DNA from: Cyanidioschyzon merolae | Lineage: Eukaryota | Reading direction: 5' to 3' (one strand) | Length of the DNA: 64,000 nucleotides | Assembly (NCBI GenBank): GCA_000091205.1 | Contig: AP006499.2 | Shown: positions 15,693-63,556 of the stretch, piece by piece | How the letters are laid out: every line of letters begins with the position of its first letter | Numbering within the stretch: position 1 is the stretch's first letter | Program-made: the position numbers and the translations under genes | The notes under the pieces: generated by a model | What the model saw: the letters and a program-made list of their open reading frames with translations, nothing else | Database searches by the model: none | Told to the model about the DNA's origin: nothing

Positions 15693-15769
15693 AGGTAAAA
15701 ATATCTGTCCAATCGCAGACGCCTCCCAACGTCGTTTGACCGGTCGCCTGGTATCGGCTTCAGATTTTC
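15693..15769 (-). ncRNA. Conserved 3' module downstream of the Fanzor-like stop; candidate omega-RNA scaffold remnant (copy A)
   Basis: The reverse complement reads ...gttgggaggcgtctgcgattggacagatattttt. This aligns with the equivalent position in copies B, D, E, G and H. Confidence 0.25.
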
Positions 15770-15995
15770 CTCACATACTGCGCGAAGAGGCTGCCCCATA
15801 AATAAAGTAAGCTCGCCTCAGATCCCCGAGTCTCCTCTTCGGCACCGCACATCGTCTCATATTTGTGGCGGCGTTGATGTCACAGTTGACAAACTCCTTG
15901 CTTTTATTGCATCCGGGCGAAATAACCAAAGCAAGTATTTCTAGAGCTCATGTCCTCTGCGCCACGACAGTCTCGTCATCGTCCCGCTGGGTAAA
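15770..15995 (-). pseudogene. TnpB/Fanzor-like RuvC-III C-terminal remnant (copy A)
   Basis: The minus-strand translation reads ...VFTQRDDDETVVAQRT*... and FVNCDINAATNMRRCAVPKRRLGDLRRAYF. This is the D-x-NAA-x-N motif plus conserved tail; frameshifts and stops are present. Confidence 0.55.
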
Positions 15996-16513
15996 CACCT
16001 TTTCTCAACTTTTCCCCTTCTTCTGCTTCTTCGTCACTTGCTCCTCTTCTCACGATGGTATCGGAGAAGAGAATTTTATTGGTTTTCGTCCAACCCGGTG
16101 ATGATGGCCCTCCGAGATCCTCGAATTATACGCCCATACCATCGCATTTTATTTTTTATTTTGGAACATGAACACCCTTCTTCATGTCCTGAGGTGAAAC
16201 CCCTTCACGGAGGGAGAAGGACTTGCGGAAGACAGACGGAATGTGCCCCGGTGAGTCAAAGTTGTGAAAGCTTGATCAGTTCGCCCAGCGTAGCGTTCAT
16301 TACGTTTCACGGTACGACACATTCCTTCGATGTGTTGAATCACGTAGAGGAAGCATTAATGAAAAGCAGCTCTATCCGGATAGAATCCGCAAAAACTCGA
16401 ACCCAAAGGGCATCATGAAATACCAACTTGTATAGTTGAAGGACGTTACCAGATGTCAGGGAAAAGTCTTCAATGATTCGGCTAATTTGTACATGGTGTT
16501 GTATGAGACTTCT

Positions 16514-16987
16514 CTACGAGCGACGCTGAGGCCGCCATACGAATCCCTTGTAGCTAGACCAGATGATATCCTCGTTCTCTTCGAGTTCGGTCGTATATAA
16601 CATAATCCCTCCCCGCGAACACCCATATATGCGCCAACGGTATCGCCTGAAGGAACCATCATCAACTGAAAAAAGAAACCGACGTCCCTGTGCCTCATAC
16701 CGGTCGTGAGGTACCAGGAACACTTTCTTTGCGATTTCGTTGGAAGATGGACATGCTGTAACTAGTACCTTTTTGGGACTGTATCCCAGTGTTTTCAGGA
16801 CAGGATGAAAAAGCTGGTGAGGTGCAGAGACGCCCGTAGTGGCTACTGTTGTCGCTTCTACCTTCCGGAAGGTGAACGACGGTTCGCTGTCTGCCATTGA
16901 CCGCCAGCATTCTATAAAACTATCGGTTTCTGGCGTAAAGCGCACATACATCTTTCTTTCCACGTTCCTCAACCATCTGAGTGTCAC
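16514..16987 (-). pseudogene. Tc1/mariner-like (DDE_3) transposase remnant (copy A)
   Basis: ...VLKTLGYSPKKVLVTACPSSNEIAKKVFLVPHDRYEAQGRRFLFSVDDGSFRRYRWRIYGCSRGG... follows the Tc1 pattern L..LGY.RKK..P.LS..H...R..FA..H..W....W..V.FSDE..F. The catalytic DE is degenerate, reading DDGSF. Confidence 0.55.
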
Positions 16988-17277
16988 GGTGTGACTGATC
17001 TGAAGGAGAACTGCAGTCTTCCTTGCACTGTTCAGTACAAAGTATACCCTACAGACAATTCATCGACGATCTATAGAGCACACTGCAGAGTTATTTCGAT
17101 CTGCTGCTCTACACCGCATCCGCCGAGAAATAAAATTGAGTTGGAAGACTAATGTAGCCCTTGGGCCAGCGTCCGGCGGATACCGCTGCTTCTTGTACAC
17201 GCTCTTCGGGATGCATGCGGCAGGTACGCATCAACTCTGCATGACATGCATCCGCTTTGAGATCCAAAACCCCCTAT

Positions 17278-18632
17278 TAGATTATAAAGTGGAACACTGA
17301 ATTGTTTGCTCTGTTCCTGCCTCGTGATTTTCACCGAGTTTTTTATTCAGAAGCATAGCATCGACATTCCACGTGCAGCGATTGGGGCTCAGGGATTTGC
17401 ATGCACTTTTAGGATTTTCGGTGATAACCCTCGGAGTAGTTCCTACCGCTTTCATAGCAGGAATTCGTTACGTGACTAGAAGCAAGACCATTCGCGACGC
17501 AATCCAGAATGGTTTGTCCAGTATCCGCTTTCGTTACCCGCTGTACGCGTGCGAGCCTCTGCTCTTCTGCTTCCCTTACGAACAGCATCCTGCAATCGCG
17601 CGTTCTCCAAGCTCCCGATCCGTCCGTTGCGAGGCGACTCGCGGGCGGGGCGATTCGGGCCGCCGCCTCCGCGAGTGAAGGAGAAGTCGACGGCGAGCCT
17701 GTGAGGCTTCGTCTCAAGCGCATACCGAACCCTCTCTGAACGCGTTACGTCAAATCATCGATTTCACTCCAGAGACAAATCCTGCCCTCTCCCTCTGTGG
17801 GCATCGACAACACACCATGCAACATCGTCAGCAACATACCTCTCATGCGAAAATACGCCCACAAGTGCTCGTCTCCCTTGTTTGCATTACAAAGGGCCCT
17901 GGAGTCGGACGTCAGGCATCGTAGCGATCGCTTCCAGCAGAGCGCGTGTCACCGCTGTGCACGAAGAAGGGAGCGCAGACCGATCGACATTGCTGGGCGT
18001 GCGCTCCAGTCTGGATTCCGCCCCCGGTACATACCTGATCCCGAACGACGTCGCTTACCGCAAATCCTCTGTCGAACGGGGCAGCGGTCGCTTGCATTCG
18101 CAGTCGATAGCGTGCTCGCCAAGGCGATCGCCCAGAACAAGTCCGTGCTCTTTGGGTACGGCATCCAAGGCAGCCTTTTGCAGCGGTCAGTGGCATGCAA
18201 GGAGCGATGACGCGCGCGTTCACGTGCCACGAGGCGGTGCTCGAAGGAGCACGTGTGTGGCGTCAGACCCATGGAAGCACCTGAACGCAGTCAGGCGTCA
18301 TCGCTGCGGCAGCCGCACCGAAGCTCCAGAGACGTGGGCTCCAAATGGCCAGCAACGCACGGATCGTAACGACCGCTTGTGGATGCAGTGCTTGCGGATG
18401 AACCAGAAACAGCGAACGCCGGACTCGAACGCTGGCATCACCGTATCTCGACTGCTGCAGCGCGGCTGACGCGAATGCAGACATCGGCATTTGTAAGCCC
18501 AGTGATCAGCGAGAGGGACAGGAATCAGTCGCACTCAAAGCCCGCACAGGCTGATGTTGATGAAAATAGATAGAAGGAGAGCGGAATGCTAGCGTTTTTG
18601 CGACCGAGTTAGCTAACTGGACCCATTCCATT
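17278..18632. repeat. Right copy of the 1.36 kb inverted repeat
   Basis: Reverse complement of 8833-10196 at more than 99% identity by eye. It is also homologous, though diverged, to the direct-repeat units at 36485 and 42863, in the same orientation as those. Confidence 0.85.
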
Positions 18633-19100
18633 CTATTCTGGAATGAATATAAGACGCGCAACGCATTCGCAGAAGACGTACTGCGATGTCTAGCGCCGAA
18701 AATTGTCCAGAGTTCTAGGTGCTTCGCCAAATGCTCCTACAATGCATATCGAAGACTGCCGATTTGTGAGCATTAGGCCTCCTGTGCCATAGAGTGCGCC
18801 TCTCTTCCTCAAAGCAGGTACAGGTATCTCTTCCTCAAGAAATTCCGATCAGAATCACTTAAGAAGAATGCTATCCACATTGCGGCTCACCTGACCTTTT
18901 AAAAACTTCACACAAGAGTGCGCGTCGGTGACCCACATCAGACGCGTACCGATAACTGCAGCCGCTCCTCATGGACCTTGTCCAGGAACGCGTCTCTGCA
19001 GTAAATCAATCGCCTCTGCCGCGTAGCCACGCAGGATCGTTTATCGCGAATTTTTGCTCCTAGGCAGCACTACTCACTCTGTCCAGCAATCACGCGAGTG

Positions 19101-21228: not shown

Positions 21229-21264
21229 CCGTAAAACTTTGCGACGGTTTGCCATGTACTGTCC

Positions 21265-23560: not shown

Positions 23561-26179
23561 ACTTTGCTCTCTGCACTAGGACGAGTCCGACTGCAATCAC
23601 CATCATGTCCTACCACATTGAGAATGTCCAGAGACCGCATGACGCAGCGGTGACGGTCTTCGCTGTGGCATGTTTGCGCAAAAGCAGCATCCATACCGAT
23701 GCATCCGCACAAAGCGGGAACTCGTTGCCAAACACTCACCGTTCCGGCGGGTATAAGTGCCGTGAATGGTACCAGGCCCGAGGCTTCCCCGACTCCAGCG
23801 CTGTGCAATGACCTTCAAACAAAAACGCTCAAGCCGACTCCTGAGGCAAATTGCCACCCCGAACGAAATGCAGGGAACTCGCGTCCACGCAAAGGATCGC
23901 GTCCTATTTCACAGGATACTTGCAAGCGACACGCGTGTCTCTTAAACATAATGAAAACATCCACAGAGACCAACGATCGGGTTGCCTGGCTGGGGAGCAC
24001 GCACCTTACCATGCACACCCGCGCGAATGCATATTTTATTCCTCATCGACAATGAAACGTGCAGAGGTGCCGTGCTCGGTGCTTGAGTGAAATCAAATAG
24101 CAGAACTGCCCGGCACTTGCCATGCCGCGATCTCACAGGCACTGAACAGACGCCGGGTAAAGCGGCTCCCTTGGGTCGAGGCGTCAATTGTCCGTATCCG
24201 TCGAAAATGGAAGGCTGACATGTTCGCTGGGCTCCCGGCTATCGATGTTTTCCGACATTGTTTCCATGTACAGCATCGAGTATCGAACTGCAGCAATATG
24301 GGCGTACGAATTCATACGTGGTTTAAGATTCGTGGTTGTCTTTATCGGAATGGCTTTTACGAATCTATGCTGCGGAAATTTGTTTTGTTTATTTGTTTCA
24401 TTGACAAAACGTTTACATGGGCCAGCGTTCTCCAATTGTGCGCTCTTTCTGCTCCCACATTTTTTTGTGTTTTTTCCAGTACACGGTGAAGTATCCATCA
24501 AACGCCCTACCTCCAAGTTACATGTCCCATACTTCTTCTCGGATATTCAGGTCGTTTCATACGTCCTATCGTGTGTGCCTGGTGCCTGCCGAAAGCGACC
24601 GCAATGGAGTCTTTAGCGCCGATGCGTTCGCTGCACGGAGACAGAATGGCGTTGCCGTACCACACAGAGGGCATCGGCTCGAGATTCGTTCTGGTAAGGG
24701 AATCGGGAAGATTCGCGACGCACTCGAAAAAGCGTTTGAAAAAATAGATACCATCATCCAATTGAGTTTTGCATGCCCCCACTCTTCTCCTTTCGTTAAG
24801 CGTGGCGTGCTCAAATTATGCCTTCTAAATGTTTTCCATCCTTCTGTTTCACCACAACTCGTAAGAGCAGGAATTCGCACCGCTATATAGAAAAGGAAAA
24901 GAACTCGACAGTTTCAGTTGATGAGCGTTTTGTGGAAGCACCTGCCGAAAGCTATTTTGACTTTCCTTTATCAAATAATCGAGACAATTCGAATAACGAA
25001 TCCTCCTACTTTGCGGCCAGCGACTAGACGGTGTTCGACAAGATCACGCTACCTCTCACAGGGTTTGCGCGCAGAGGCACCAGTCTCGTCTGTTTAGATG
25101 TAACAGGGTCGTAGACTGCGGCTCGAGACATCGCAGCAGTTGCCCCATTGGGGAGCGCGTCACCGCTTCACACGACGAGAGCGTAGACCAATCGAATCAT
25201 TTCGATGTGCTATGCAGTCAAGGTTCCCCTTCCTGCACTGGTTTCATCAGGAGCAACATCGCGCTCCACAAAAAGCCTCTTTTATTCGCAAAATAGCAGA
25301 GGGCAGAATATAGGTCATCTTGCCTACTTTAACTTTTTCTCCGTTGTTCGACGCTATTCAGAGCTTGTTCCGGACCATGGCAAACATATTCATGGATTTG
25401 AATTACTTTTTCGGCAACCCGGATCGCCCTCGACACGACCAATACTCAGTGCTTTTGGCGCCGAAACTGCTGCCACTGGGCTCCTCCGCACCTGTTTGGC
25501 GCAATTTGTTCCCGTTCACGGATCGGGGACTTCCAAATAACCATGAACGATAGCGATGAACAAGATGTACAGAATGAATATGTAATGCATTCTTATCAGT
25601 AGAGGCACATGGCCGATGCGCACCTGGTACACCGAGGTAAGAACTTTCTCAGAGCAACAATGAAATCCCGGAGTATTTCGCTTAGAGGCGCATACCATCC
25701 ATACAGAACGTCGCCCATGTCGGACGCAACGCCTTCCTCCACGAAGCGCGTCGCATGGGCATCTTCTCGAACGAGGAGCTGTCTTCATCGCTACTCTACG
25801 GCACTGCGGTCGTGACGGCATATCTCGGACCACACTAGCTTATGCCGTGACATCGAGCCCGAAGAGAAGAGCGGGAACTCCATCGCCGCATTCTGAAGCA
25901 ACGCGATTGCCTCAAGCTCAAGCGCATGCACAGCTTGTGCGGCGTAGACCTTGGAGTCCTTCACCGCAATTGTGTTCCACCTCCGGGTACGTGTCATCAA
26001 GCGCTCTTTAGCGGTCTATATCAGACTTGCTCAGAGTGCGTTCATTTGAAGAAATAAAAAATCTAGGGGACAGGTATCGACATGAAAGTTGGAGATATTG
26101 CAGGGGATGTCGTCGCCGGCTGCCTGTAGAAAACGAAAAAAAAAATCCGCTTCTCGTCAGCTATCTAGCGAAGAAGGGC

Positions 26180-26535
26180 ATATGCTGAAAAAGAAGAAAA
26201 AGAAACAAAGAGAACGACGAGTCAAGGGGCTTGCCCAACCGAACGACAACGAGACTGTGGTGGCATAGAGGGCACGAGTTCGGGGACTCCTTCCAATAGT
26301 GAGTTCACCCGGAGGCCCTGCACGCAGGGAGTTCGCGAAACGAGACTTCAACGCCATCATCAATGTCAAGAGATATGCGGCGCTGAGGACGACACCCGCA
26401 TAGCTGACGCGATCTGTCGTCGTGGGGCAGCTCCTCAGGCTCAAGATCTACAGGGAGATGCTGAAATCGATAGCATACGGCCGGTCGGAAAAAACTGGGA
26501 GGCGCCTGTGACTGGGTGTAAACATATACAATCTA
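26180..26535 (+). mobile_element. Fanzor-like 3' fragment, copy D (C-terminal remnant plus conserved 3' module only)
   Basis: ...KGLAQPNDNETVVA... then REFAKRDFNAIINVKRYAALRTTPA*. The 3' module follows: ...ctcaggctcaagatctacagggagatgctgaaatcgatagcatacggccgg...aaaaactgggaggcgcctgtgactgggtgtaaacatatacaat. Confidence 0.55.
26401..26535 (+). ncRNA. Candidate omega-RNA scaffold remnant (copy D)
   Basis: The conserved segment immediately 3' of the Fanzor-like stop, aligned to copies B and G. Confidence 0.25.
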
Positions 26536-28258
26536 CGGTAGAAAAAGGTTTTTTCGCTCCATGGACTGTAACACGGACAAGTGATTCTAGATTGCGTGGT
26601 TGTTATCGGGGCCTGAGAAAACGTCCACCATTACGCAACATCCTTCAAGTTGCTCCAGACATCATCTATGCTTTCCTTCGGAGATGCTGGATCGTTCTGG
26701 CGATCCTCTGGAAACCGAGTCCACTGTGAGTGCCAACAATGGCATCTTATGCACCAGTACAGACGCCAAACGGAGACAGAGCGGCTTTAATGTGCTTTTG
26801 TGAGCGTCGGTTCGAGGGCTGCTCGCGCGAGAGGTCCCCGTCACAAGCAAGCGCAAACGCACGTCACCGTGGATATAGTGCAACCGGGGAATCTGGTTCA
26901 CATTATCGACGTTTCACACCATGGGGAACCAGGGTTTCATCTCGCGTAGATGCCCTTCCAGGTGCCGTTGAGCCACGCCGTCGCCTCGTGCGGCGAATGC
27001 GTCGTCACTGTACGGATCCAATCCCCAGCGCTGATGGGAGGTGCTGTTTACGGTTCTTCGAATGTGCTTATATTCGGACAGAAGCAGTGATCCCTCGACT
27101 GATCTCCACTGGCAATAGCGAATGCTGGGAATTCATGTCCAATGTTTCAAGCGTATACCATAAAACATTTTATCCGGCATATGATGCCGTTCTAGCAGCA
27201 GTGAGAAAGCCGCTCTATGTTTCTCGAATTACTGCTCATCAAACGCGTAACGCGGCCGGCAACTCCCGTGTTCCATCGCACGAACTGATGCACCATGACG
27301 GTCTCGTGCAGCGTCCTCGCTCGTGACTGTGTCGCCTTTCATGTCCGACGACTTCTGCGCCAGGTACTCAAGTTCGCAGCAATGTGGACGATAGATGCAG
27401 AGGGCCGAATTCGCAAATCCAATCGACTTCGAGCGAGCAGATGCCGCGCATCCTGAATACCCCTGTTGTTCCGTTCTACTATCGCGCACAGATAATAACC
27501 GCCGACGATGAGCTGGTTTCCGATGAACGAAGCTTGGCGAATGCAGGCTCGGGCGGTGTCTTCTTCAGATACGCAACCCATATCCGAACGCTAGCTGTGC
27601 CGATCCCCGCGCAGAGTGCGTCTCTGTGCCCGTGAGCCTCTGTGAGGGCAAAAGTTTACGCGCTAGCGCTCGGAAGCTAACGCTCAGCCTTGCTTCTTCG
27701 TGTCTCCGAGCTCGATCTCGCCTCAATACATAGCATGCAGCGCTATAACTCTGTGGGCTTCTTCGCTTCGCCTGGAACGTCCTCGGCGTCTGCGAGGCCA
27801 CTGTTGAGGAACGCGGTCCAGAAAGCCTCTGCTGTCCCTGGTGCGGCGTCATCCGACGTTCGTTCAGCGAGTTCCATGATGCCGTCGGGATTCACATAGT
27901 CCTCGCCACTGAGCCACCAGAGGTTCGCGTGTTCGTCGGCCCCGCTCTGCGCACGACCAAACAGCGTTCGAGCGCTCTGTTTGTGTTTCGTTAGAAGGCG
28001 TCGTATGGCGGGCGGAGCGCTCGCAAAGTCTTCATCATCTGACGACAACTCTGCGCGCAAAAGCACCCTTGACTGTGAGCACGTTGACACTAGTACTGGA
28101 CGAGACCTTTGGCAACCCAGCGGTACGGACTGTGGCACGAACATGTTATCGATGCAGTACGTCCCAACAAAGAACAGTGTCATCGCCAGCTCTCGCGCGC
28201 CGTTCGAGCACGCGTGTTTACAGTTCTCGAACGTGCTTCGAGGACGGTTTTGGAAGAA

Positions 28259-28948: not shown

Positions 28949-30100
28949 GGACTCAGGGAATTCGTACTATTGAGACCGCCTGCTCTGAAACTCGAGCGAA
29001 GTTGCACCAGCAATGGATTTGGGTTTCAAATCTGATCCTCCGATTTGTGATGGCGAAGCTCCCATATCTGTATCATACATATGGTACCGTGATCGGAAGG
29101 CTCTGGCTCTGGGACAGGAGCTACCCAGCAACAAAGTGTCGAACGCGAAGAGCCCAGCCTTCTGGCGCGGCACCGACACCCGTCACAATTTTCTGCGTGC
29201 GCGGCACTGCATTTCGCGTTGATTTACGTCACTGCACAGTACTGGACGAGGGGCCATGCCATCAGCGAAACGTCCACGGGAGACGACAGCTCAAATTGCG
29301 CGTCTTCTATGTATACGATTCTGGAACGCGGCTGGGTCGAATCACGACAGCGTACGGATTCTTTGTCTGTGGACACTTTTCGACGAGTGCTTTCGAGTGG
29401 CTGGAGAATTCGAACCCTAGTCGTGGAGATTCGTCGTTCTGGTATAGCCGTCCGAATGAGCTAGAGCGGTGCCTCTGACAGAGAAAGATGTGTGATTGCA
29501 TTCGAGCGGACGAGCTGCGGAGGTCTCCATGCCGGAGACCTAGCGCCAAACTGAGCACACAGCACAGACCTGCGGGCGCTCACATAGAGGAGAAGATTAC
29601 GCGCCGATTGCGCTCGATTTGCGAAACGGCGCCTGCAGATAAATGGTGGCATTCAGGGCTCGCGCTGTAACCACGGAGAATGCTCCGCCCAAACAGTTGC
29701 TACAGAGACACGAATACCCGTATCACGGGAGCAGATAGGGACTTGCGGTGTAGCTGTTGTATGAAAAGATCGTTTAGATTCATTTACTGTGCAGGAAGGC
29801 AGAACCAGAATCCCATCATGTAATCTAAAGAATACGATCGCCCTGGGGTTTCTGAGGTCTTTGGAGATTTTGCGTAGGCTCGCGCATGTTCTCCAGAAGA
29901 ACGATTGAACCGCAAATCTACGAACTGATAGCTTTACCTCGGAAATAAACGCCTATTCGCTACAAACACTACAGATCACAGTATGTATCGGACGCAAGAA
30001 CAGAGTGCTGGGAAACCATACGACGCGAGGTGGAGGACACAATCTCGACGAATTACATGCATCCCCAGGGCGAAGAACAACTTTTTACATCTATGGAGCG

Positions 30101-30159
30101 TATGGAAACCCATACGCAGACGCCGCGCAGCATTTTTGACCGGCCTCCTGCCACCGATA
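30101..30159 (-). ncRNA. Candidate omega-RNA scaffold remnant (copy H)
   Basis: Contains the conserved ...aaaaa.gctg.g.ggcgtctg... segment 3' of the RuvC-III remnant. Confidence 0.2.
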
Positions 30160-30790
30160 TCAGTTTTTACCCCAGCACACTTTGAGCTTGAGAGTCTGGG
30201 CCACGAAGTTGAATCGCGTCGGATCCTTGGGTCTCGTCTTCTGCACCGCACACTGTCTGATATTAACAGCGACTTTAAGTCTCAGTTCATAAACTTAATG
30301 CGCGTATTGCCCCTGGCTGAACTCACCAGTGGACGGACTGCTAGAACTCGCGCCTTCTGTGCCACTACGGTCTCTTCAGTGTTCCGTCGGGCACACACTT
30401 TTTCCCGCCTATTTCCACTCTTCCTCTACGTCACATGCTCGGCTTCGCTCGATGCTAGGTGACAAGACAATTTTGTCTGTTTTTTCTTGAACCCGGCGAC
30501 ATCGGTACTCCAGGATCGTCGACTTGCTTTTCCATAACTTTCCTTTTCTAATTTTTGTCTGAAAAAGAACGCTTTTTGAACGCTTCTTTTATAGACTGCA
30601 AAAAACCAATCGAATACACTTGTTTGAGGTTTGGAACTCAAATGAATTGAAAGACTGTACTTTGCTTCGACCCCAACGCAAATACAACTTTTTCCGGTAG
30701 AACAACACGCTAATTGATCGGGATCATGTTTCCCTCCAACGGCGACATGCGCGTCGTGTCTCATGTCTGCCCGATCTCCCAGGTGCGCTC
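30101..30790 (-). mobile_element. Fanzor-like partial copy H (3' half: internal segment, C-terminal remnant, 3' module)
   Basis: The minus-strand translation reads ...ETVVAQKARVLAVRPLVSSARGNTRIKFMN* and ...LKVAVNIRQCAVQKTRPKDPTRFNFVAQTLKLKVC. The 3' module reads ...ggtcaaaaatgctgcgcggcgtctgcgtatgggtttccatac. Region 30490-30790 matches the internal segment of copies A, C and E. Confidence 0.55.
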
Positions 30791-31019: not shown

Positions 31020-31300
31020 GCAACGATTCCAGCAAACGCGTAGCGTTCTCAGCGACACACGCTTGTGTGGATGAGGTACGCATCACTCTACTCAATAGGA
31101 ATTTCATCAGTTTTATTGATCGTAATCAAACAATGTACGGCAGGGTTCCCGAACACGGATATGCGTTTATTGCCTATGCTTGTTATGCATGCTGCACGGA
31201 CGCTGGAGTATGGAACTGATTCGAATTCTGCTGGTATCCTGCGTCATGGGCTGGAACTGGTGGCAGTTCAAGTCATTGCCATGTCGTCGTCGTGCGTCGG
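31020..31300. repeat. Interspersed repeat R2, copy 2
   Basis: Aligns with 15040-15330 (see that entry). Confidence 0.7.
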
Positions 31301-31989
31301 ATTGTATTCGCTGAAAGGAAGCCGCAGGACTTGTGTAACGTATTCAAGAAGAAACTCACGATGCTTTTATTCGATCTATTTCCAGACACTACCGCTCCCG
31401 AGCCTAAATTTCTGGACAAGCGTCAATATACTGTCCTTCAATCCCCAAACTGCCTATTATCAAAGCCAGCGGGGCGACGAGGGGCTAAACGAGCCCAAGA
31501 GCCACCGACACCAGTTTTACGGCTGGGCACCTTGCTGAGCACATCTTCCAGCGTTGCCGTTGTGCCGAAAGGGTTTGACTTCGGGCCCGCACCGCTCAGC
31601 TTATCTTTCCACTGCCCCTGCAGGTCCCAAGGCTTTCTTTGCTTGGGCACACGATCAAGATAAGACTCAGAGCCGTCCCGAGGGGTCGCGCGGCCTCCGA
31701 TGCCGCCAGCCCGAGCTCTGGCAATTGTGCGCTCCGCAGAAGGCGAACGGGGCTTCGAGTTGCCCTGTCGCGCTAGAACGTCGCTCCATGCAAGCGGTTC
31801 ATTGTTCAAGAGATCTTGCAGATCTGCCGCACCTCTCACGAATACCTGGACAGCTATCTGCGAACAAGACACCAAACCGAGCGCTCCGAAACTCAAGGAA
31901 GCCATGTCACCACAGTCGAGTCCGAACAAGGGTAAGCGAACGGCGCCTCGCGAAGCGTGACCTGGGAGGTGCACTGCGAGATCTCGAAC

Positions 31990-32069
31990 GAATGTTGACA
32001 ACTTGACCACAGACGCCTCCTAGAATTTTTGGACCGGCCACCTACTACTGGTTCCAACTTATTCTTGCA
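31990..32069 (-). ncRNA. Candidate omega-RNA scaffold remnant (copy E)
   Basis: The reverse complement reads ...ccaaaaattctaggaggcgtctgtggtcaagttgtcaacatt, aligned to copy G ...aaaaagcctgggaggcgtcttctggtggatatgcatatac. Confidence 0.25.
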
Positions 32070-34450
32070 TCATTCCACCTTGAATGGTTCTCCCACAAAA
32101 TTCTCTCTTGTCATCTCTGGAAGTCTTTTTTCCATCACCACACATTTCCTGATATTGATTGCGGCGTTAAAGTCTCGGTTCACAAACTCCATCCGTTTCT
32201 TGCCATCATTGATTGTACTTACTAATGCAAGTCGCCCATGAACGTTCGCCCTCCTTTCCATTTGCTGTCCCGTCAGCGGTCCGTATTTTTCATATCCTCA
32301 GGGCTCCGCTGGCACTTTTTTCATCTCGAATCTCTGAAGTGTGCATCCCAGTTCATGGTGTATATACAATGCTCGGAACTCATCGATCGGTAGCGGAACG
32401 AAACGCCTTGCGCACTCCTTGTACGTTCTCGCCGGTGGAGCTGGTGTAGTCCCTTTTTGGGTCTTCCAGCGTCCTGCTCCGTTTGCCACTACGAGCCTCT
32501 GACGTTCATCCTCCTTCAAGCCACTCAACTGATTGAAAAAGTTGGCAAACGCCCGCTGCTTCCCACAATACAGGTTCATTCGCAGACGAGCCCACCGAGG
32601 CTTTGTATACTCTTTCCACAGCGCATCCCAATGAGCAACGCGACCTTCCATGAATTTCCGAAAAGCTTCAAAGTCCGCTCCTCGACTCGTCACCTTGCTC
32701 AAGGCCTCCAGGTGCTCTTTCAGTTATGCGTTCCACGTCTCGATTTTATTCCTTGCATTCATGATTCTGGAATCTCGATAGTTTCTTGCTCTCGAGAACT
32801 TTAAAATACTCATGCCTTTCTGAAGTAAGTTGCCGTGGATTCCATCTTCCGCACGCTTGGGTACTGCGGTGGTTATGATACTTGTGCCCCAGGGTCCGCG
32901 CCAACGACAAGGTCGTTATCCTGCACTTTCTGCGTCGCAGAATCCGCCTCCTTCTCATCTTCATGCTTCGTTACGGGCGAGGCCGAGCATGGAACAAGAC
33001 GATCCGCCTTCAGGCGCCGACGGTGTACACACATGGATACCCCATCGGTTTCGATCACCCCAGCGAATACCTTTTGTTCGCTGACTTTCAAACGTTTGAT
33101 TTCGAAGATATTTTTCTGGTACTTCTCCCGGTTGACACCGGTGACCTCCTTCCTGCTAACCTTGAACTCCGGACAGATCTCCCTCATGATGCCATGAAGG
33201 ACTGCGGAATCGATGGTCACGAAATGTGCCCTGATGTTGCACAACGGAACCACGTTGAAGCGCTTCTCCATTAGGAACGCTTCCGTCTCTCAGACGCTTC
33301 ATTGTTCCCGCGATTCAGCTCCATCTCCGCCTTGGGTTCGAGCTCTCGGTCTGGGTGCACGAAATAGCGCATAATTAGGGGATATCATCATTTTTTCACC
33401 TTTTTTCATATCTGATACCTTTTCTGCTGGGTTGACCGGCCTCAAGGGTGCACGGTGCTCATGAATAGTCGCACGGATTATAGAATCCTCATTCGTGCAC
33501 CTGCGTGATGTCTTCTTGTCGACGAACTCGATCTCCTGTTCAAGCTGCCGATCGTCCGTCATCCCATTGGTGATGGCCCATCTTTCCTTCGCGAGAGAGA
33601 CCCGGTTGGAGTGCAAACACGGCGCATATCATGAAGCCCTGGAGGTTCATGGTTAAACGGTCTCCAAGTTCGTTAGGTACCGCATGGCCCCGTGGGTGTA
33701 AATATTCCAGTCCCTCTGAATCGAGTACCGTAGAAGCTGTAGAAGGGATGCTTTTCGTGGAGGGCATGCACCCGCTCATTTCCCCTCGAGGTTTCCCCTG
33801 TGGCGAGCACCAGGTGGCGAAGAAGGGTCCTGCTGAAAAATTCTTCCGGAACCTCGGCTGTTTCGATGTCGGCCACGTCTTCATTCATCTCCTTCACCAA
33901 ATGCATTAGCCCTGACGAAGCCTTTATAACACTCATGGAGTAAGACGCAACACGGTTTCTGGGAGTCTCTTGCAACGCTTCCTTGGACGGATGCTTGATA
34001 TGTTTAAGATGGCAGGCTTTGACAACCATCACGTCGTTGTGCCGTCTTTCTTGCAGCCTTTGACGTCGGGCCTCCTTCATTTGCTTCTTTGTCTCGTCCT
34101 GTTCCTCTTCGCACTGGACTGTGTGTTCGTTTGTATCCGCCAGCTGACGACACTGGGCCTCCAGGAGCCTCCACTTTCACTCGCATAACTTTCCTTTTTA
34201 ATTTTTTTTCTGAAAAAGAACGCACCTTGAATGCTTCAGGTATAAACAGCGAAAAATCACTTGAATACACTTACTTGAGGGTTGGAATACGATTGAACTG
34301 AAAAGCATACTTTGCTACGACTTCAATGCAAATACACCGCGTGCAGCAGAACAACACGCTCTTGATACCGATCGCGTTTCCGTTCAAGAGCAGCATGCGC
34401 GAAGTGTCTCGTGTAACTGGCTGATGTCTCTGGTGCACGTGTCCAGCCCC
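31990..34450 (-). pseudogene. Longest Fanzor(TnpB)-like copy (E, about 2.4 kb), frameshifted. It has a RuvC-I-like GxDxG motif, a candidate RuvC-II, and RuvC-III D-x-NAA-x-NI.
   Basis: Minus-strand ORF pieces run in order. 33271..32873 ends ...[15 protein letters not shown] (RuvC-I-like). 32702..32298 reads ...VPLPIDEFRALYIHHELGCTLQRFEMKK... (candidate RuvC-II Glu and degenerate zinc-finger region). 32261..32070 reads ...GKKRMEFVNRDFNAAINIRKCVVMEKRLPEMTRENFVGEPFKVE* (RuvC-III). The 3' module is at 31990-32069. Region 34160-34450 matches the internal segment of copies A, C and H. The short copies lack the central roughly 1.9 kb present here. Confidence 0.55.
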
Positions 34451-35419
34451 CTACAGAAAAAAAACAGAGACTCACGACTAACTGGCAACGATATGACAAT
34501 TTCTTTCCCCCCTCTAAGGTAAACGTTAAAAGGCGAAAAGGTTTCCATATTGTCGAAAGTTTATTTTATAGGCGAAACGTCCCGCGAGCCGGACGTGTCT
34601 GCCAGACCAGTGCTTCATGCGACCCCAGTGGAAGGTGCTTGCTGGAAACCCGAGCAACTCGTGCGAAATGCAGTTTATTATGAGACTAGGAGCGGGTATG
34701 CTGCGTCAGGGCGTCGGCCTGGTCGCAGTTATCTCCTTACATATCGCTTGGCGCTGCCGCAGGCACTAGGTCTGTCTGCAGAGCTTGCAGGCTCCCAGAA
34801 AGATTATGTACTCTGGCTCTGTATCGGGAAAAGCGCTCCTCGATTCGATGCCCTCTGTGGTACGGTAACGCGGTTTTGTCTCCGCGATCCATCTGTTCCA
34901 GCGGTTTAGGCGCCACTACGGGTGCTCGTGGTAGGTACTCGCGCACGCTAGAACGTAAAAACCGACCAGTATGTCCGAGATGAAGTGTAAGAGATGGATC
35001 TTAGTCGGCCGGGGCGGGAAGGGCAGCATGATGAGCGCTTCCTCGAAAGCCACTACCCATCCATCCCGAAATCTGGGATCCATGGTAAATGTAAACGTTT
35101 GTCATCGAAAAAAAACAGATCGAAATTAATATGCAATTCACCGTTTAGATCGAAGACGAATTGTCTCTAGTATGTATATTCTTTATTGAAGAGTGCAATG
35201 AGGACTGCATGGTTCCTTCAGGTCAGTCATAGCAGGTCACTCAGGTGGTTGACGAACACTGAAAGAGACCAACAGATGCGCTACGCGCCGAAAACTGATA
35301 TTCTTCAGGCCTGCTTGCGGTCAATGATAGAAAATGGTCCGTTGATAATGCTACCGAAGAGCAAAAGCTATGATAATAGACGTCAAGTAGGTGTCTCTGT
35401 TTCTCACTAGTTTGTTCAT

Positions 35420-35713
35420 GTGGTCCAGCATACAGGGGGATACAGTCGCAAGAAAGTCCTAGTTCACGAACGGTCATCTTCCAATGAAATCGCAACGACA
35501 GCGTTCCTGGAGCTCAGCGATCGGGACAGAGTACAGGAACGTCGGGTTGTTTCAGTTGATGAGATTTCCTTTCGACAAAACGGTCGGAGCATGTATAGGC
35601 ATTTGTGGGGAAAAGAGCCTGTTATATATACGATCGAACTCGAAAATAACTCGGACCTCATTATCTGTTCTAGCTGCAGTCGATTCACTCTCCGGCCTCA
35701 GTCCCGCTCGTAG
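35420..35713 (+). pseudogene. Tc1/mariner-like (DDE_3) transposase remnant (copy B)
   Basis: ...GGYSRKKVLVHERSSSNEIATTAFLELSDRDRVQERRVVSVDEISFRQNGRSMYRHLWGKEP... fits the Tc1 pattern, with FSDE-like VDEISF and downstream Y.W..G. It is truncated, with no second Asp or Glu block. Confidence 0.55.
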
Positions 35714-35874
35714 AGAAGGCTCATCCAACAGCACCAACCATTCCGTCGAATCATTGAAGACTTTTCCCTCACGTCTCGCGACGTTTTTCCACTGAAAAAC
35801 GTGGTATTTCAGCATTACCGTCGCGGTCGAGTTTTTGCCGATTCTGTCGGGGTAGAGTTGGTTTTCATTTCTCC

Positions 35875-36342
35875 GTGAGCTCCGTGATTCGGTCCCATCG
35901 AAGGAGAGTTTTCGATCGAAAAAAGGTAATGATCTCTCCACTGGGCGAATTGATGAAGCGTCCAGCACACGATGACACCGCGGACAATGTCGTCTCTCTT
36001 CTGCAAGTCTTCCTCTTTCCGGGAAGGTCCTCATTTAGGCACATTCAAAAGTGCGCCCATTCGCAGAAAATGAGGGATGAACTGAGGTGTATATTTCAGA
36101 AGGTCGAGATTGAGAGAAGGCAGCGGAGCGCTTCGGTGATAGGAAAGCACAGAGGGCTGACAGAGCACCACATGACGCTGAGGGTGCGAATTCGAGGACT
36201 ACTTGCACTGGTGAGTTCAACCAGCAGCAAAAAACGCATGAAGTTCGTGAATGGTGAGTTTAACACTGAGAAAAATACAAGGAGATGTGCATTGTTGAAG
36301 ACGAGACGCGAGGAGCTGACGCGAGCGAACTTTATGGGGTAG
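35875..36342 (+). pseudogene. TnpB/Fanzor-like C-terminal remnant (copy B)
   Basis: The ORF ends ...SSKKRMKFVNGEFNTEKNTRRCALLKTRREELTRANFMG*. This is the degenerate D-x-NAA-x-NI context (NGEFNTEKN), conserved with the other copies. Confidence 0.5.
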
Positions 36343-36443
36343 CCTCTCGGGTTCGAGGTGTACAAGGAGAAGCTGAAGCCGATCGCAGGGTGCCGGCCAA
36401 ATACGGTTTGAAGGCGCCTGCCGTTGGGCGAATATACATACTC
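36343..36443 (+). ncRNA. Candidate omega-RNA scaffold remnant (copy B)
   Basis: cctctcgggttcgaggtgtacaaggagaagctgaagccgatcgcagggtgccggcc...gaaggcgcctgccgttgggcgaatatacatac aligns with copies D and G. Confidence 0.25.
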
Positions 36444-36484
36444 AAAAGTCGTGGAATGTTGTTCGTTATACTGGAAAGAATACT

Positions 36485-37747: not shown

Positions 37748-38066
37748 GAACGTACATGCACTGAACCCGTTACGTAGCGGCGACGTCGTATGAGTGATTG
37801 CCGTTTGCAATCACGCGCCGATCGCGAGACGGCCGCGCGTCACAGCATAGGGTGCCAGATTTCAGGGGCGTCTGCTGCGGAGCCGTATCCCACGGCCTGC
37901 CTGCAGGCTCGGACACGTCCCAGATTGGCAACTGATCCCGGACACGTGGTGCGATCTGGACGCGTTTCACATGGACAGCAGCTGGAGCGCTCGCGCGTCG
38001 ATGTGGAACACCCGGCGACAAGAGCCAGCCTGAAATTCACACCCGGCTTTAGAACTCGCTGTACTT

Positions 38067-54528: not shown

Positions 54529-55113
54529 TGTCCAAAGTCTCCTGTTGATTAGTTACTCGTGAAACACAGAGAGGACCATCCGCCCTGAGAAACCAGAACG
54601 CAAAGCCGCTACTGTGCTGGGCGCTCAACAAAACGGTGGCGCACGCGCATCAGTGACGTGTGTTTCCCGGTGCGACGTTGCGCGGTATTTAGTGCAGAGC
54701 GGTCGAGCTTCGGTAACACAACTGTCTTATCTATGAGGACACTCGCATTCTATGCTGGGAGCGCCCAGAAGCGCACTTCTCGTCTGAACCGGACGTAAGG
54801 GCATATGGTGTTGTATCGTCTGGTGCGCTGCGGTCGATAGTGCGCTTGACGGCGTTGGACGATGTAAGGCGCACTTGAACGTGCCTGGTCGCGGTTTCGA
54901 CTGTCGACTCAGCCTCTATAACGTCTAGGCGTTTTCTCTTGTTTTGTAAGTCGCGGAAAACGTACAATAGACAACGCAGCTCCATAGCACAATACACACA
55001 AATTAGTCGAGCGCACGGTGGGAGGTCGGTTGCGTCTCGACGGCAGCGAGCAGGCTGCACGCTTTCTGGAGCGAAAAGTTTCGCGACCATAGAATGTACA
55101 CAAATAAACCTAC

Positions 55114-55542
55114 TCACAGAAGACACCCAGCCTTTTTTGACGGACTGCATGCTATCGGCTTCAGCAACCCCTTGCACAGTTTGAGCCTTAGCGGTTGCGC
55201 GACAAAGTTCGCTCGCGTCACCTCCTCGTGTCTTGTCTTCAGCACTGCACATCTTTTGGTATTGATGGCGACGTTACCGTCTCGGTTCACGAAATCCTTG
55301 CGTTTATTGCCTCTGCTTGAACTCAGCATTGCAGGGATTGCTAGAGGTCCTGCCTTCTATGAAATCAAAGTCTCGTTATCGTCTCGTTGAGCAAACACAT
55401 TTTCTCGCCTTTTTCCGTTCTTCTTCTTTATCACTCGCTCTTCTTCGGTTGGTGGTCGGCGTGAAGAGGATCTTTTTTTTCGTTCCTTTTTTGTGGAACC
55501 CGGCGACACCGGGCCTCCAGGATCCTTGACGTCCGTGACCAT
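55114..55542 (-). pseudogene. TnpB/Fanzor-like C-terminal remnant (copy C)
   Basis: ...KKERKKRSSSRRPPTEEERVIKKKNGKRRENVFAQRDDNETLIS*, then in another frame MLSSSRGNKRKDFVNRDGNVAINTKRCAVLKTRHEEVTRANFVAQPLRLKLCKGLLKPIACSPSKKAGCLL*. Confidence 0.5.
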
Positions 55543-55860
55543 ACCTATTCCTCGGATTTTTTTTATTTGAAAATGAACGCACTTCTTTATGCCCTTAGAT
55601 GAGGGCCTTCCTGGAGCGAGCAGGATTTGCGGAACAAAAACTACTTGTGCCCCGGTGTGTCACCGTGCAGAACGCTCCAGGGACTCGCCCAGTGGAGCGA
55701 TCATTATGTTAAAGGATACAAAACACTCCTTCGATGAGGTTGAAACACGTAGAGCACGGAGGAATGAAAAGCAGCGCTATCTGGATAGAATCTGCAAAAA
55801 CTCGAACGCATCGGAAATGGTGCAATGCCACGTTTTCCAGTAGAGGGAAGTCGGCGGACG

Positions 55861-56382
55861 TCAGGGAAAAGTCTTCAATGATTCGAATTTGCGGGTGCTG
55901 TTGTATGAGTCTCCTGTACGAGCGAAACTGAGGCCGTCAAATGGATCAACTGCAGCTAGAATAGACGATGATGTCCTCGTTCTCCTCGAGATCGATCGCA
56001 CATACAACGAGCCCCCTCTTTTTGAATACCCATATACGCTTCGGCCGTTTCGTCCAAAGCAAGTCTCATTTACCGGCGAAACAAACCGCCATTCCCGTGC
56101 TTCATACCGATCGCGACGTTTCAGGGATGCTGTCGTAGCGATTTCGATGGACGATGGTCGTGCATGAGCTAGGACTCTTTTTTTGCGACTGTATCCCAGT
56201 GTTTTCAGTACCACATGAACAAGTTTTTGAGAAACAGATACACTCTTGGCGGCTACTATCGTCGCTTTTGCCTCCCGCAGGGTGATCAACGGGTCGTATT
56301 TCCACCATGGACCGCAAAGAGTCTTTAAGAATATGGCTCTTGGCGCGGAGCGCGTATCCTGTGATCTTTCAGTGATCCTCAA
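55861..56382 (-). pseudogene. Tc1/mariner-like (DDE_3) transposase remnant (copy C)
   Basis: ...SQKLVHVVLKTLGYSRKKRVLAHARPSSIEIATTASLKRRDRYEAREWRFVSPVNETCFGRNGRSVYGYSKRGG... FSDE is degenerate, reading VNETCF. Confidence 0.55.
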
Positions 56383-56935
56383 CTATCTGAGAACTGCCGT
56401 ATGACTGACCTAAAAGAAAAATACGGTCCCCCGTGCACAATGAAGTAAGGAATATATATCCTCCAGGCAGTTTGCCTTCGAATTATACGGTACGATGTAA
56501 CTTGATATCGATCTGCCGCTCGTACTGCGAAAAAGCATTCGATGACACGCATCAGCGGTGGAACAGAATTGACCTGAAAGTCCGCAGAAATCGAACAATC
56601 TTTCAAGGTTTTGTCCATGATTCTAAAATGTGATATATTGGTCCATAACGCATTGCACGCCAAGCGATCGCGAGCGCCGCTCCCCATGTAACGAGCACCG
56701 ACGCGCGTCTGACGCCGAGCCCGGGCCAAAACTCGAACCGGTGCTGCGCAGCGACGGCCGCGACACGATGTGGCGAATGCCGGCGTATTCGTCGACACTT
56801 TGTAGACGCTCTAGCGCAGGCTTTACGTAACGAACTTTTTCTGATCGAAAACCAAAACTCAGTTTGATCGTACCTTGTGCACGCGTGGACAGTAAAAACT
56901 TGTATTGGGACCGATAATTGTCATAGGACGCGACC

Positions 56936-60570: not shown

Positions 60571-61230
<660 letters not shown>

Positions 61231-62272
61231 CCTGTAAGGCGATCTTGGCGGTGCAGCACTGAAGGGTTTCAAGGCCCTCGGTTAAATGTCTCAAAGTTCC
61301 GCGTACTAGGCGCGGCGCACGGAAGGCGCGCAGTCGTGTTCGTACCCTAGACTGGTACAGGCTGTGAGAATCTCTTCTCTATCATGCATCCGTCGCAGTA
61401 CGTTCTTTAAGGAAATGCATTTCTATCAAAGGACCTCGGTGGTCCTGGTAAACGAGTAGGGCGATGGTTCCGGAAAAGGCTGAAGGGCGACGGTGCTGTG
61501 CCAGCGCCGACCGCCTTCTTCGTACTAGCGCCCGCTTCTGGCTCTGTAACGCTTGCCTTAGCACTAGCAGTCGCTGACGTCGTGCTCGCTGCACCATTTC
61601 CAGTGGATGCTCTGTCATGTGTTTGCACGCTCTGTGCGGAAGCCGTTTTTGGTGGTTTCTCCGCCGCACTTGACGAGGACCCCGCAGTGCTACCGGCATC
61701 CGTTGGTACCCGAGGCACTACTCCAGTCGTTTGTTTCCTCTCAAATGCTGGCAGCTGGCCGTTGCGAATACGACTGCGAGCTGAATCAGCTCCGGGCATT
61801 GGAAGGCGCTTCTTGCCAAGTTTGCCGCCTCGAGTCAATATCCAGCCGTCGCCGCCCCAGACTCGGTCTGCGCGAAGCACCAGCAACGGGCGGCTGTTCT
61901 GCGCAGAGATCGAGCTCCGCCAGCTAGTCTCGTGAAGTGCATGCGCGCAAAACCCGATGACACCTATTGAACCGAGTGTTCCAAAGGACTGCAACGCACT
62001 CAACGCAAAAGCTTGGCACTGCATGGAGAGGCTCAGACACCCTGAAGGAATTGATGAATAAAGATCAAGCGCAGCTAACTGTGGAGCCGTAGCGGCGGTC
62101 GGCGCTCTGCGGCACACGCGGCAGTGGGTAGTTTAAGAAAAACAACAAAGCGGACATTCTCTTGCGGTGTCCGTGTATAGGGTCTTTCATCTCAATTTCG
62201 TTCCGCCTCTGCTACGTTCTGTAGAAGAAGGTCGAAATTATTGTGTAATTAACCTTTTAGATCGTAGACGAA

Positions 62273-62692
62273 TTGTCAGTAGGGTACGTATTCTTTACTA
62301 AACAGTCCACGGAGAACTGCATTCCTTCTTCATGTCAGACATTCCACATCACGCAGATGGTTGCGGAACACTGGAAGACAGGCATAGACGCGCTCTGCGT
62401 CAAGAACCGATATTCTCCACGTGTGCTTCCAATCAACGGTAGAACACGATCCTTTGATCACCTTTTCCGGAAGTACAAAGCGACGATAATAGATGCCACC
62501 AGCGCCTCTGTTTCTAAACAGCTTGTTCATGTGGTCCAGAATACACTAGGATACTGTCGCAAGAATGTCCTAGTTCAATCACCGTCATCTCCCATGGAAA
62601 TCCCAGTTACAGTGCTCCTTGAACATCGAGATCGGTATGAAGCACAGGGACGTGGGTTTTTTTCCTCAGTCAATGAGACTTGCTTCCGATGA
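62273..62692 (+). pseudogene. Tc1/mariner-like (DDE_3) transposase remnant (copy G)
   Basis: ...SKQLVHVVQNTLGYCRKNVLVQSPSSPMEIPVTVLLEHRDRYEAQGRGFFSSVNETCFR... fits the Tc1 helix-turn-helix and first DDE-block pattern. Confidence 0.55.
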
Positions 62693-63002
62693 AACAGTCG
62701 GAGAAGATACGGATATTTGCGGAGCGGGGCGCCCGTTCCATATACCATCGAATTCGAGACGAACGACGAAATCATCATCCGTTCTAGTTGTAGTGGATTC
62801 TATTTACGGCCTCAGTTTCGATCGTGGGGAAGGCTCATACAACAGCACCAACCATTTTGTCGAATCATTGACGATTTTTCTCTAACATCTGGCGACGTCC
62901 TTCTACTGAACAACGTGGCATTTCACCAGCCCCCTCGCGGTCGAGCGTTTCCCGATTCTATCGGGATAGAGCTCGTTTTCATTCTTCCGTACGCTCCGTG
63001 AT

Positions 63003-63486
63003 TCAACCGGAACGAAGCAATCTTTTGTATCCTGAAATGCAACGATTGCTCCACAGCGAGATTCGCTGAAGCGTCCAGCACATGGTAAAACTGGGCCACA
63101 TTATGTACCATTTGCGCAAGTGCTTTTTCTTCCGGGAAGGGCCCCACCAAAGGCCATAAAGAAGTGCACTCACTCTAAAAGAATTAAGGGATGAGCTGGG
63201 ATGCACACTTCAGATGCTCGAGATTGAGAAAAGACTGCAGAGCGCTTTGGCGACAGAAATGTACGAAGACATGATAGAGCACCAAATGGCACAGAGGGCC
63301 TAAGTGCGCAGATTCCTCGCATAGGTGAGTACAAGCGGAAGCAAGAAAGGCATGAAGTTCGTGACCCGAGATTATAACGCTGCTATCAATATCAGGAGAT
63401 TTGCGGTGCTGGCGACGAAATCCCGGAAGCTGACGCGAGCTTCCTTTAGAGGGTCAGCATCTCAGGCTCGAAGTATGCTGGGATAA
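63003..63486 (+). pseudogene. TnpB/Fanzor-like C-terminal remnant (copy G), the best-preserved RuvC-III motif in the window
   Basis: atgaagttcgtgacccgagattataacgctgctatcaatatcaggagatttgcggtgctg translates to MKFVTRDYNAAINIRRFAVL, matching the D-x-NAA-x-NI RuvC-III consensus of TnpB/Fanzor/Cas12. The upstream part is frameshifted. Confidence 0.55.
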
Positions 63487-63556
63487 ATACTGAAACCGAT
63501 AGCAGGCAACCGGTTGAAAAAGCCTGGGAGGCGTCTTCTGGTGGATATGCATATAC
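63487..63556 (+). ncRNA. Candidate omega-RNA scaffold remnant (copy G)
   Basis: The conserved segment ...aaatactgaaaccgatagcaggcaaccggttgaaaaagcctgggaggcgtcttctggtggatatgcatatac lies immediately 3' of the Fanzor-like stop. Confidence 0.25.

Follow-up and report, generated by a model that had tools for sequence, protein, structure and literature searches.

Which kind of mobile element could have left a Tc1/mariner-like transposase next to the C-terminal end of a Fanzor nuclease, several times over, within one short region of an algal genome? The question is raised by a stretch of 64,000 nucleotides from Cyanidioschyzon merolae (contig AP006499.2, assembly GCA_000091205.1), referred to here as the window. 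A first-pass annotation, made from the letters alone, had described seven loci (copies A, D, H, E, B, C, and G) with a D-x-NAA-x-NI block resembling the RuvC-III motif of Fanzor, the eukaryotic relative of TnpB. In four of them, A, B, C, and G, a piece of transposase was seen upstream. The Fanzor family of the window is plainly the published Fanzor1 family CMe-1A (Bao and Jurka, 2013, Mob DNA 4:12; PMC3627910), and the seven copies are very probably fossils of a lineage of Tc1/mariner-superfamily DNA transposons that carried a Fanzor1 gene.

The Fanzor part was located with a profile hidden Markov model (HMM), built from 25 homologues of a Fanzor-like protein and run on the six translated frames of the window. 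It matches exactly the seven places listed before and none elsewhere, with domain expectation values (E) ranging from 2e-4 in copy H to 2e-139 in copy E. A second profile, built from 98 DDE_3 transposases and about 296 positions long, is covered nearly in full (positions 3-293) by A, B, C, and G. The copies differ in what is left of the Fanzor gene, and two types of internal deletion can be told apart:

Copy A, 15654..17156, minus strand: type-1 deletion, located by the transposase HMM, the Fanzor HMM, the common junction, and end strings; transposase 16334-17077 (E = 1.6e-33), Fanzor match 15801-16034 (E = 2.6e-8).
Copy D, 25967..26571, plus strand: type-1 Fanzor remnant preceded by 5' sequence of the CMe-1A type (consensus 801-969), located by BLAST and the Fanzor HMM; Fanzor match 26167-26451 (E = 1.5e-13).
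Copy H, 30056..30788, minus strand: type-1 Fanzor remnant preceded by 5' sequence of the CMe-1A type (consensus 660-969 at 82% identity); Fanzor match 30178-30300 (E = 2e-4).
Copy E, 31925..35107, minus strand: full-length CMe-1A element; Fanzor match 32064-34110 (E = 2e-139).
Copy B, 35108..36483, plus strand: type-2 deletion with the junction also found in G; transposase 35168-36025 (E = 2.9e-40), Fanzor match 36070-36366 (E = 2.5e-21).
Copy C, 55055..56587, minus strand: type-1 deletion, located by both HMMs and the junction; transposase 55631-56463 (E = 2.1e-31 and 1.4e-14, frameshifted), Fanzor match 55171-55323 (E = 2.5e-11).
Copy G, 62176..63599, plus strand: type-2 deletion, located by both HMMs and the motif; transposase 62286-63043 (E = 2.6e-25 and 1.5e-10, frameshifted), Fanzor match 63190-63468 (E = 1e-20).

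The seven loci had been recognized correctly, but the bounds of E, D, H, and the short copies had to be revised: E extends from 35107 down to about 31925 (previously 34450-31990), D begins at 25967 or earlier, and H spans 30056-30788. The block that defined the loci can be aligned in all seven, but its strict form, D.NAA.NI, is intact in E and G only and is mutated in the other five. The short elements A, B, C, and G, of about 1.4-1.5 kb each, are colinear, as had been proposed: self-BLAST aligns them over 0.9-1.3 kb at 68-72% identity, and the mean column identity of the four-way alignment is 73%. D, H, and E share only parts with other copies. Every copy contains stops or frameshifts (in E, at least two frameshifts and about eight in-frame stops by our own count on the reading frames). 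The initial description of dead elements is therefore correct; all copies are inactive, and nothing in the window is functional now.

A trivial origin of such a family would be the segmental duplication of one locus, or a host gene family to which the DxNAAxNI block belongs. The crowding of seven copies into 48 kb and the presence of other large, near-identical duplications in the window would fit such a scenario. However, alignments between copies end at the element boundaries while the flanks are unrelated, and the copies are found in both orientations between different host genes. Homology that stops at the element ends points to transposition and not to segmental duplication. In addition, all copies are pseudogenes that match a published repeat family of about 150 genomic copies, which leaves duplication or a host gene family as an extremely improbable explanation.

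To identify the nuclease, the three reading frames of copy E were combined into one pseudo-protein. It retrieved 48 homologues (up to E = 5e-248), several of them intact and 700-750 amino acids (aa) long, and copy E aligns along the whole length of these. It covers positions 4-687 of the Fanzor HMM, in three frames, and residues 1-752 of the intact protein P0001 in a tblastn search. The split RuvC domain of Fanzor1 can be read in copy E as VVGADPG (motif I), IDEFRAL (motif II), and NRDFNAAINI (motif III); the corresponding motifs in the intact P0001 and P0044 and in CMe-1A are GADPG/GNDPG, VDEFRTSY/VDEFRTTY, and NRDFNAAINI. The short copies keep motif III only, mostly mutated, with an intact DYNAAINI in G. 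Between RuvC-II and RuvC-III, where a C4 zinc finger has been described as a motif of Fanzor1 (PMC3627910), the interval of CMe-1A/P0001, TSYTHHELGCTLQRVEMEKCQRS, contains two histidines and two cysteines and no clear CxxC...CxxC.

An AlphaFold (AF2) model was used for the fold comparison. It represents P0044, an intact relative with 34% identity to the copy E pseudo-protein, and not a decayed window copy; its mean predicted local distance difference test score (pLDDT) is only 58, which marks a model of moderate quality. The top six Protein Data Bank (PDB) matches of this model are cryo-electron microscopy structures of Fanzor (SpuFz, PpFz, and GtFz; E = 4e-8 to 4e-7), with a probability of 1.00 and template modeling (TM) scores of 0.43-0.63 over about 660-790 alignment columns, essentially the whole chain. 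The next match is Cas12o at E = 8e-3. Pfam searches of the reconstructed pseudo-proteins and the intact homologues gave no OrfB_Zn_ribbon or TnpB match, with DUF8286 as the only precomputed assignment. Cas12f1-like_TNB matches the Fanzor family weakly (0.23), and a PDB sequence-profile search with the family yielded nothing at E <= 1. As Pfam is silent even for the intact homologues, its absence is not evidence against Fanzor in this case. The demand for a match to a Pfam or TnpB profile, which had been suggested as the refuting check, would have wrongly dismissed the family, since the relationship was revealed by the fold comparison only. The full-length alignment to homologues, the fold search with P0044, and the membership in CMe-1A bear out the proposed identity, so that the assignment of the nuclease part to Fanzor is supported by sequence comparison together with a predicted structure.

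CMe-1A was described from a C. merolae protein and a 3169-bp consensus given in the supplement of the 2013 study. It was reported to comprise about 150 copies with about 80% identity to the consensus each, without inverted repeats or a transposase, with an undetermined target duplication and unknown classification; the first part of the element is a separate repeat, TE-N2_CMe, and Fanzor elements in general are often chimeric (PMC3627910). Positions 1-3083 of the consensus align to window positions 35107-32010 with 82.9% identity over 3111 columns, in agreement with the published value. Consequently, copy E is a full-length CMe-1A copy whose 5' end lies about 650 bp beyond the limit first assigned to it. 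It consists of a TE-N2_CMe-like 5' part of 635 bp, a spacer, a complete but inactivated Fanzor1 open reading frame (ORF) at about 34110-32064, and a diverged 3' tail, and it is a Fanzor-bearing derivative without transposase, already named CMe-1A. Similarity to CMe-1A from end to end at about 80% is exhibited by E only. In D and H, the match to the consensus is partial and interrupted by an internal deletion, and the Fanzor remnants of the short copies align to consensus positions of about 868-1065 and/or 2737-3088. In A, B, C, and G, a DD34E transposase takes the place of the TE-N2_CMe-like part upstream of the Fanzor 5' untranslated region (UTR), and the last 75 bp or so are unlike the CMe-1A tail. 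These four were not filed under CMe-1A because only the Fanzor-derived parts are common to both. Two further fragments, at 24402-24683 (plus strand) and 59908-60132 (minus strand), resemble the initial 255 bp or so of CMe-1A, the TE-N2_CMe part, with 70-76% similarity. The stretch of the consensus from 660 to 868, which E and H contain, was considered as a remnant of a transposase C-terminus and rejected, as tblastn, protein HMM, and nhmmer searches gave no significant similarity.

The transposase gene of the short elements had been called a remnant of Tc1/IS630 (DDE_3) type. The type is upheld by the profile matches and by the spacing of the catalytic residues, but the near-complete coverage of the profile identifies a complete gene, decayed by stops and frameshifts, and not a fragment. 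It is a whole, decayed DD34E transposase of the Tc1/IS630 type of about 295 aa. The translated consensus of A, B, C, and G is 36% identical (E = 2e-45) to an intact ORF of 301 aa in the metagenome contig L002. In Pfam searches, the L002 transposase matches DDE_3 at 1.1e-27 and, in its N-terminus, helix-turn-helix families (HTH_Tnp_Tc3_2 at 1e-4; HTH_33, HTH_23, and HTH_28 at about 1e-3), the latter all under the Pfam gathering scores; for the window transposase, only a weak DDE_3 match (0.0016) was obtained, in G. A database search with the transposase returned 116 relatives, mostly of about 295 aa and many of them on contigs of 3.1-3.7 kb, and the spacing between the second D and the E is 34 residues in 91 of 96 relatives (hence DD34E). 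This second D is mutated in all four short copies (to N, K, K, and E).

Weak transposase-like remnants were also detected at 24732..25141 on the plus strand (domain E = 0.0012 and 0.027; profile positions 50-114 and 125-180; borderline). They are located upstream of D, on the same strand and in the correct order and spacing, and may represent the rest of a more decayed composite with copy D. The CMe-1A-like fragment at 24402-24683 is found just upstream of them. An eighth transposase pseudogene of the Tc1/IS630 type, from a more divergent lineage, is located at 47816-48516 (minus strand; family profile E = 2e-18). Its identity to the L002 transposase is 29%, its motifs VSIDETLF and LIMDNIVFHN are still readable, and no Fanzor remnant adjoins it.

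The origin of the short copies was read from the deletion junctions by aligning the junction regions to the CMe-1A consensus. In the type-1 junction, found in A, C, D, and H, about codon 50 (...DEMVVKA) is joined to about codon 690 (...RRAKVRGLL), with GAAAG present on both parental sides. In the type-2 junction, found in B and G, the start-codon region is joined to ATGAGCTGGGG, just after DEFRTSYTHH. Junction microhomology amounts to 3-5 nt, and each deletion type has a single junction that is common to all its copies. Both deletions remove RuvC-I, RuvC-II, and the whole recognition lobe, and both keep the last 50-90 codons and the 3' UTR. In the type-1 composites, the Fanzor 5' UTR and first codons are retained at the expected position after the transposase stop. 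Copy A may serve as an example: its Fanzor remnant consists of the 5' UTR and some 50 codons of the N-terminus, followed directly by about 50-80 codons of the C-terminus that end near 15801, and its 3' tail reaches about 15654. One common junction per type indicates that each deletion happened once and that the product was then copied, and the unrelated flanks of the deleted forms likewise indicate copying after deletion. The claim that the combination was amplified as one unit is thereby supported; the four short copies are nevertheless of two deletion types and not of one. Judged by these junctions, the short elements very probably derive, by two independent internal deletions, from an element that had both genes, the transposase and Fanzor. 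At the time of its formation, such a short derivative could have been autonomous for transposition.

Copy B lacks about 65 bp of its left end and adjoins the 5' end of copy E head to head at 35107/35108. Its missing 65 bp or so, which would be expected beyond the 3' end of E if E were nested in B, were not found there.

In five independent relatives, the transposase is located directly upstream of a full-length Fanzor of the same family, on the same strand, with both genes intact or nearly so:

L002, a 3.5-kb metagenome contig: transposase 53-958, Fanzor 1146-3254.
L006: transposase-plus-Fanzor module.
L007, from an NCBI assembly: transposase-plus-Fanzor module.
L009/L010 (L009 being the ENA metagenome contig k141_158428, 1-12882): transposase-plus-Fanzor module.
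L011, the viral contig UViG_3300028372_000028 of IMG/VR: transposase-plus-Fanzor module.

When compared with the Fanzor profile by hhalign, the downstream ORFs of L007 and L009 gave 2e-89 and 1e-78, respectively. The literature is in line with this arrangement. Fanzor1 occurs in Mariner elements with TA duplications, and PUl-1 from Pythium as well as PGv-1 are Mariner elements that encode a Mariner-like transposase and Fanzor1 (PMC3627910); an association of the Fanzor1c group with Mariner/Tc1 elements has been reported together with a proposed homing role (Jiang et al., 2023; PMC10530073).

These relatives also bear on the idea that the two parts met by chance, namely that a Tc1-like element landed beside a Fanzor fragment or took it up, with the composite spreading afterward and a two-gene element never having existed in this lineage. 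Such a capture would account for the lack of a two-gene copy in the window and for the Fanzor remnant behind a different 5' part in D and H, and chimeric Fanzor elements are common (PMC3627910). It is nevertheless very unlikely, as five independent intact relatives have one and the same transposase family directly ahead of the same Fanzor family, with both genes on one strand, and as the type-1 composites carry the Fanzor 5' UTR and first codons after the transposase stop, just as an internal deletion predicts.

Two of the relatives, L009 and L011, place the module in contigs that resemble giant-virus genomes. Its neighbors in L009 include GIY-YIG, IF4E, and an NAD-dependent ligase, and across the giant-virus-like contigs L009/L011 also a Collar/Gp10 fibre domain and a methyltransferase. 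This setting fits the idea of a viral spread of these elements. A hairpin with a 17-bp stem is located about 125 nt past the Fanzor stop codon (L009 9047-9090; L010 3102-3143), and the independent 3.1-kb contig L010 ends inside its second arm, about one base short. The hairpin may be an element end or an RNA feature.

Terminal repeats can be read in two relatives outside the window. In L002, inverted repeats of 28 nt occupy 3-30 and 3429-3456, at the very ends of the element; their arms are 79% complementary and begin with TATAC on both sides. L007 carries inverted-repeat arms of 18 nt. A terminal motif similar to the TATAC of L002 recurs at several right ends in the window, and a TA lies at or beside the point where homology stops in five of six short-type right ends (by our own reading of eroded ends). 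Searches for inverted repeats in A, B, C, and G gave no convincing terminal repeats, and a multiple alignment of the copy ends showed merely suggestive similarity. A candidate imperfect inverted repeat in G, AATTTCG..CCGCC, pairs the left end with the reverse complement of the right end. Aligning the copies to define their termini, as had been recommended, disclosed weak similarity of the ends, but the ends are too eroded for a target-site duplication to be read.

Several observations weigh against descent from a two-gene transposon. The ends of the window copies show weak similarity only, best in G and C, so that terminal inverted repeats (TIRs) and TA duplications cannot be established. No two-gene copy of the lineage has been seen in C. 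merolae, the window included, and no intact transposase of the C. merolae lineage was found in the protein database, where the closest entries (54-72% identity) are fragments of 147-175 aa. No transposase remnant is detectable in CMe-1A by tblastn, protein HMM, or nhmmer, and the terminal 75-85 bp of CMe-1A, whose sequence is conserved in L001, L003, and L005 (related contigs), differ from the tail common to A, B, C, D, G, and H. In D and H, where no transposase is directly attached, the type-1 junction lies behind a CMe-1A-type 5' part and not behind the transposase; as the 5' parts differ, one has to assume that lineages exchanged or recombined their 5' parts at least once. Finally, no omega RNA is evident, and Rfam gave no match.

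The 3' region was considered with regard to the last point. RNAalifold, applied to four CMe-1A-type 3' regions, predicts a conserved long-range helix of 13 bp with one compensatory pair only, the sequences being close to one another. The last part of the Fanzor ORF (GCAGTAGTGGGTGG) shows complementarity to a segment of the 3' UTR some 80 nt farther downstream (CCGCCACTACTGT), and the sites are as follows:

CMe-1A consensus, about 3040-3055 and 3120-3135: complementary sites.
L001 8155-8425, L003 5729-6000, and L005 3407-3675: corresponding regions in related contigs.

This conserved complementarity might belong to the scaffold of an omega RNA. Scanning the entire window for Rfam families and tRNAs yielded nothing.

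If the shared 3' module contained an omega RNA gene along with the right end, the ancestral element might have split into two complementing halves, with the short copies supplying the transposase and CMe-1A the Fanzor in trans. Two independent deletions that both spare the 3' end of the ORF, the same 3' module on two unrelated 5' modules, and the conserved complementarity of the CMe-1A 3' region would all suit such a pair; so would the existence of intact CMe-1A-type Fanzor ORFs (P0001; PMC3627910), when no intact transposase of the lineage was found. A split pair would also explain why intact Fanzor ORFs were kept for so long in a "non-autonomous" family, the puzzle raised by Bao and Jurka (PMC3627910). 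On the other hand, internal-deletion derivatives of cut-and-paste elements must keep their ends anyway, and 3' retention thus needs no explanation by RNA. There were two deletion events only. CMe-1A lacks inverted repeats (PMC3627910) and differs in its terminal 75-85 bp, which leaves this transposase no obvious way to mobilize it. The RNA itself is represented by one covarying pair among four close sequences, without an Rfam match. On balance, a division of labor of this kind is unlikely, and descent from one two-gene element by deletion is preferred.

In this preferred model, the ancestral element would have been about 3.2-3.6 kb long. Between two TIRs, it would have contained first a DD34E transposase (about 295 aa) with a putative helix-turn-helix region at its N-terminus, then a short spacer, then Fanzor1 (about 650-750 aa) in the same orientation, and last a 3' UTR of about 100-250 bp. 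Two internal deletions took out most of the Fanzor ORF, and their products were then copied. The deletions may have arisen by interrupted gap repair after excision, a usual source of internal deletions in cut-and-paste elements. As is common in its family, the transposase would have worked by cut-and-paste, with TA sites as targets for the element. Fanzor, together with an omega RNA from the 3' end of the element, might have cut element-free sites, with homologous repair restoring or spreading the element. Cutting of element-free sites is known for bacterial TnpB. For Fanzor, a role in restoring or spreading the element has been proposed (PMC10530073).

The short copies can be compared with Ds derived from Ac and with deleted P and Tc1/mariner copies, which likewise show a type-specific junction, short microhomology, and retention of both ends. 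In contrast to these, it is the passenger nuclease that was lost here, and the transposase gene was left whole. The closest known systems are PUl-1/PGv-1 and the Fanzor1c-Mariner/Tc1 elements, in which the transposase is also followed by Fanzor1 on the same strand within a total of about 3.3-3.6 kb (PMC3627910; PMC10530073). PUl-1 is 3620 bp long, with 24-bp inverted repeats and a TA duplication (PMC3627910). Its transposase matches the family profile of the present study at E = 2e-40 over positions 6-289, although its spacing between the second D and the E, by our own reading of the translation, is longer than the 34 residues typical here. Unlike PUl-1 and PGv-1, the window copies belong to a red-algal lineage, and are about 30% diverged among themselves; most of their Fanzor gene is gone, and inverted repeats and TA duplications can no longer be demonstrated in them. 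Bacterial IS200/IS605 and IS607 elements (tnpA plus tnpB) are also two-gene mobile elements that pair a transposase with a RuvC nuclease of the TnpB family, and their guide RNA is encoded at the 3' end of the element (discussed in PMC10530073). They differ in that the transposase here is of the DDE (DD34E) type instead of an HUH enzyme or serine recombinase, and in the eukaryotic host and a nuclease with a predicted Fanzor1 fold.

As Fanzor1 was known from Tc1/mariner elements by 2013, and as Fanzor has by now been characterized well, the family does not constitute a new kind of system. What is added is a modest point: the unclassified CMe-1A Fanzor lineage can be tied to a Tc1-type DD34E transposase whose family includes that of Pythium PUl-1, on the basis of the short composites in the window and the intact relatives elsewhere. 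No link of CMe-1A or C. merolae to a Tc1-type transposase was found in the searchable literature. The tie concerns a model alga whose very small genome is fully finished and in which CMe-1A is the one Fanzor family, and the two clean junctions illustrate, on a small scale, the loss of a passenger nuclease from an element that retains its transposase gene. As the metagenome and giant-virus contigs show, modules with both genes are widespread and remain intact elsewhere, and such intact modules could be of help in the search for compact Fanzor nucleases with a defined transposon context.

The genomic setting is that of a nuclear, intron-poor eukaryotic chromosome, with DNA polymerase epsilon encoded by a single ORF of 2244 aa. 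Further genes of the window code for gamma-glutamyltranspeptidase, pantothenate kinase, a NIF-type phosphatase, Spo11/Top6A, squalene/phytoene synthase, and class-II DAHP synthase. Five ORFs are identical from the first to the last residue to C. merolae 10D proteins in the range BAM82017 to BAM82030, including CMQ114C, which are encoded on a contig of 1,232,258 bp, and we take the CMQ prefix to denote chromosome 17. The genome of C. merolae measures about 16.5 Mb. In this gene-dense region, the seven Fanzor-related copies and several other repeat fragments lie within 48 kb (15654-63599), and, compared with about 150 CMe-1A copies genome-wide, their concentration looks like a local cluster.

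Three other repeat pairs are found among them. An inverted pair of 1375 bp (8828-10202 and 17271-18645) with 99% identity brackets the gamma-glutamyltranspeptidase gene and copy A, its inner end being about 115 bp from the left end of A; it is much younger than the Fanzor-related copies. A direct pair of 1.27 kb (36484-37748 and 42861-44146, 98% identity) flanks the NIF phosphatase and Spo11 genes, and its first member begins immediately after the right end of B at 36483. The starts of this pair (36482-36763 and 42847-43140) were considered as transposase and rejected, as the N-terminal profile match is weak (E of about 8e-4) and the translations are without recognizable features. A third pair of 265 bp (15060-15322 and 31029-31293), 72% identical and on the same strand, lies near A and H and is not colinear with them.

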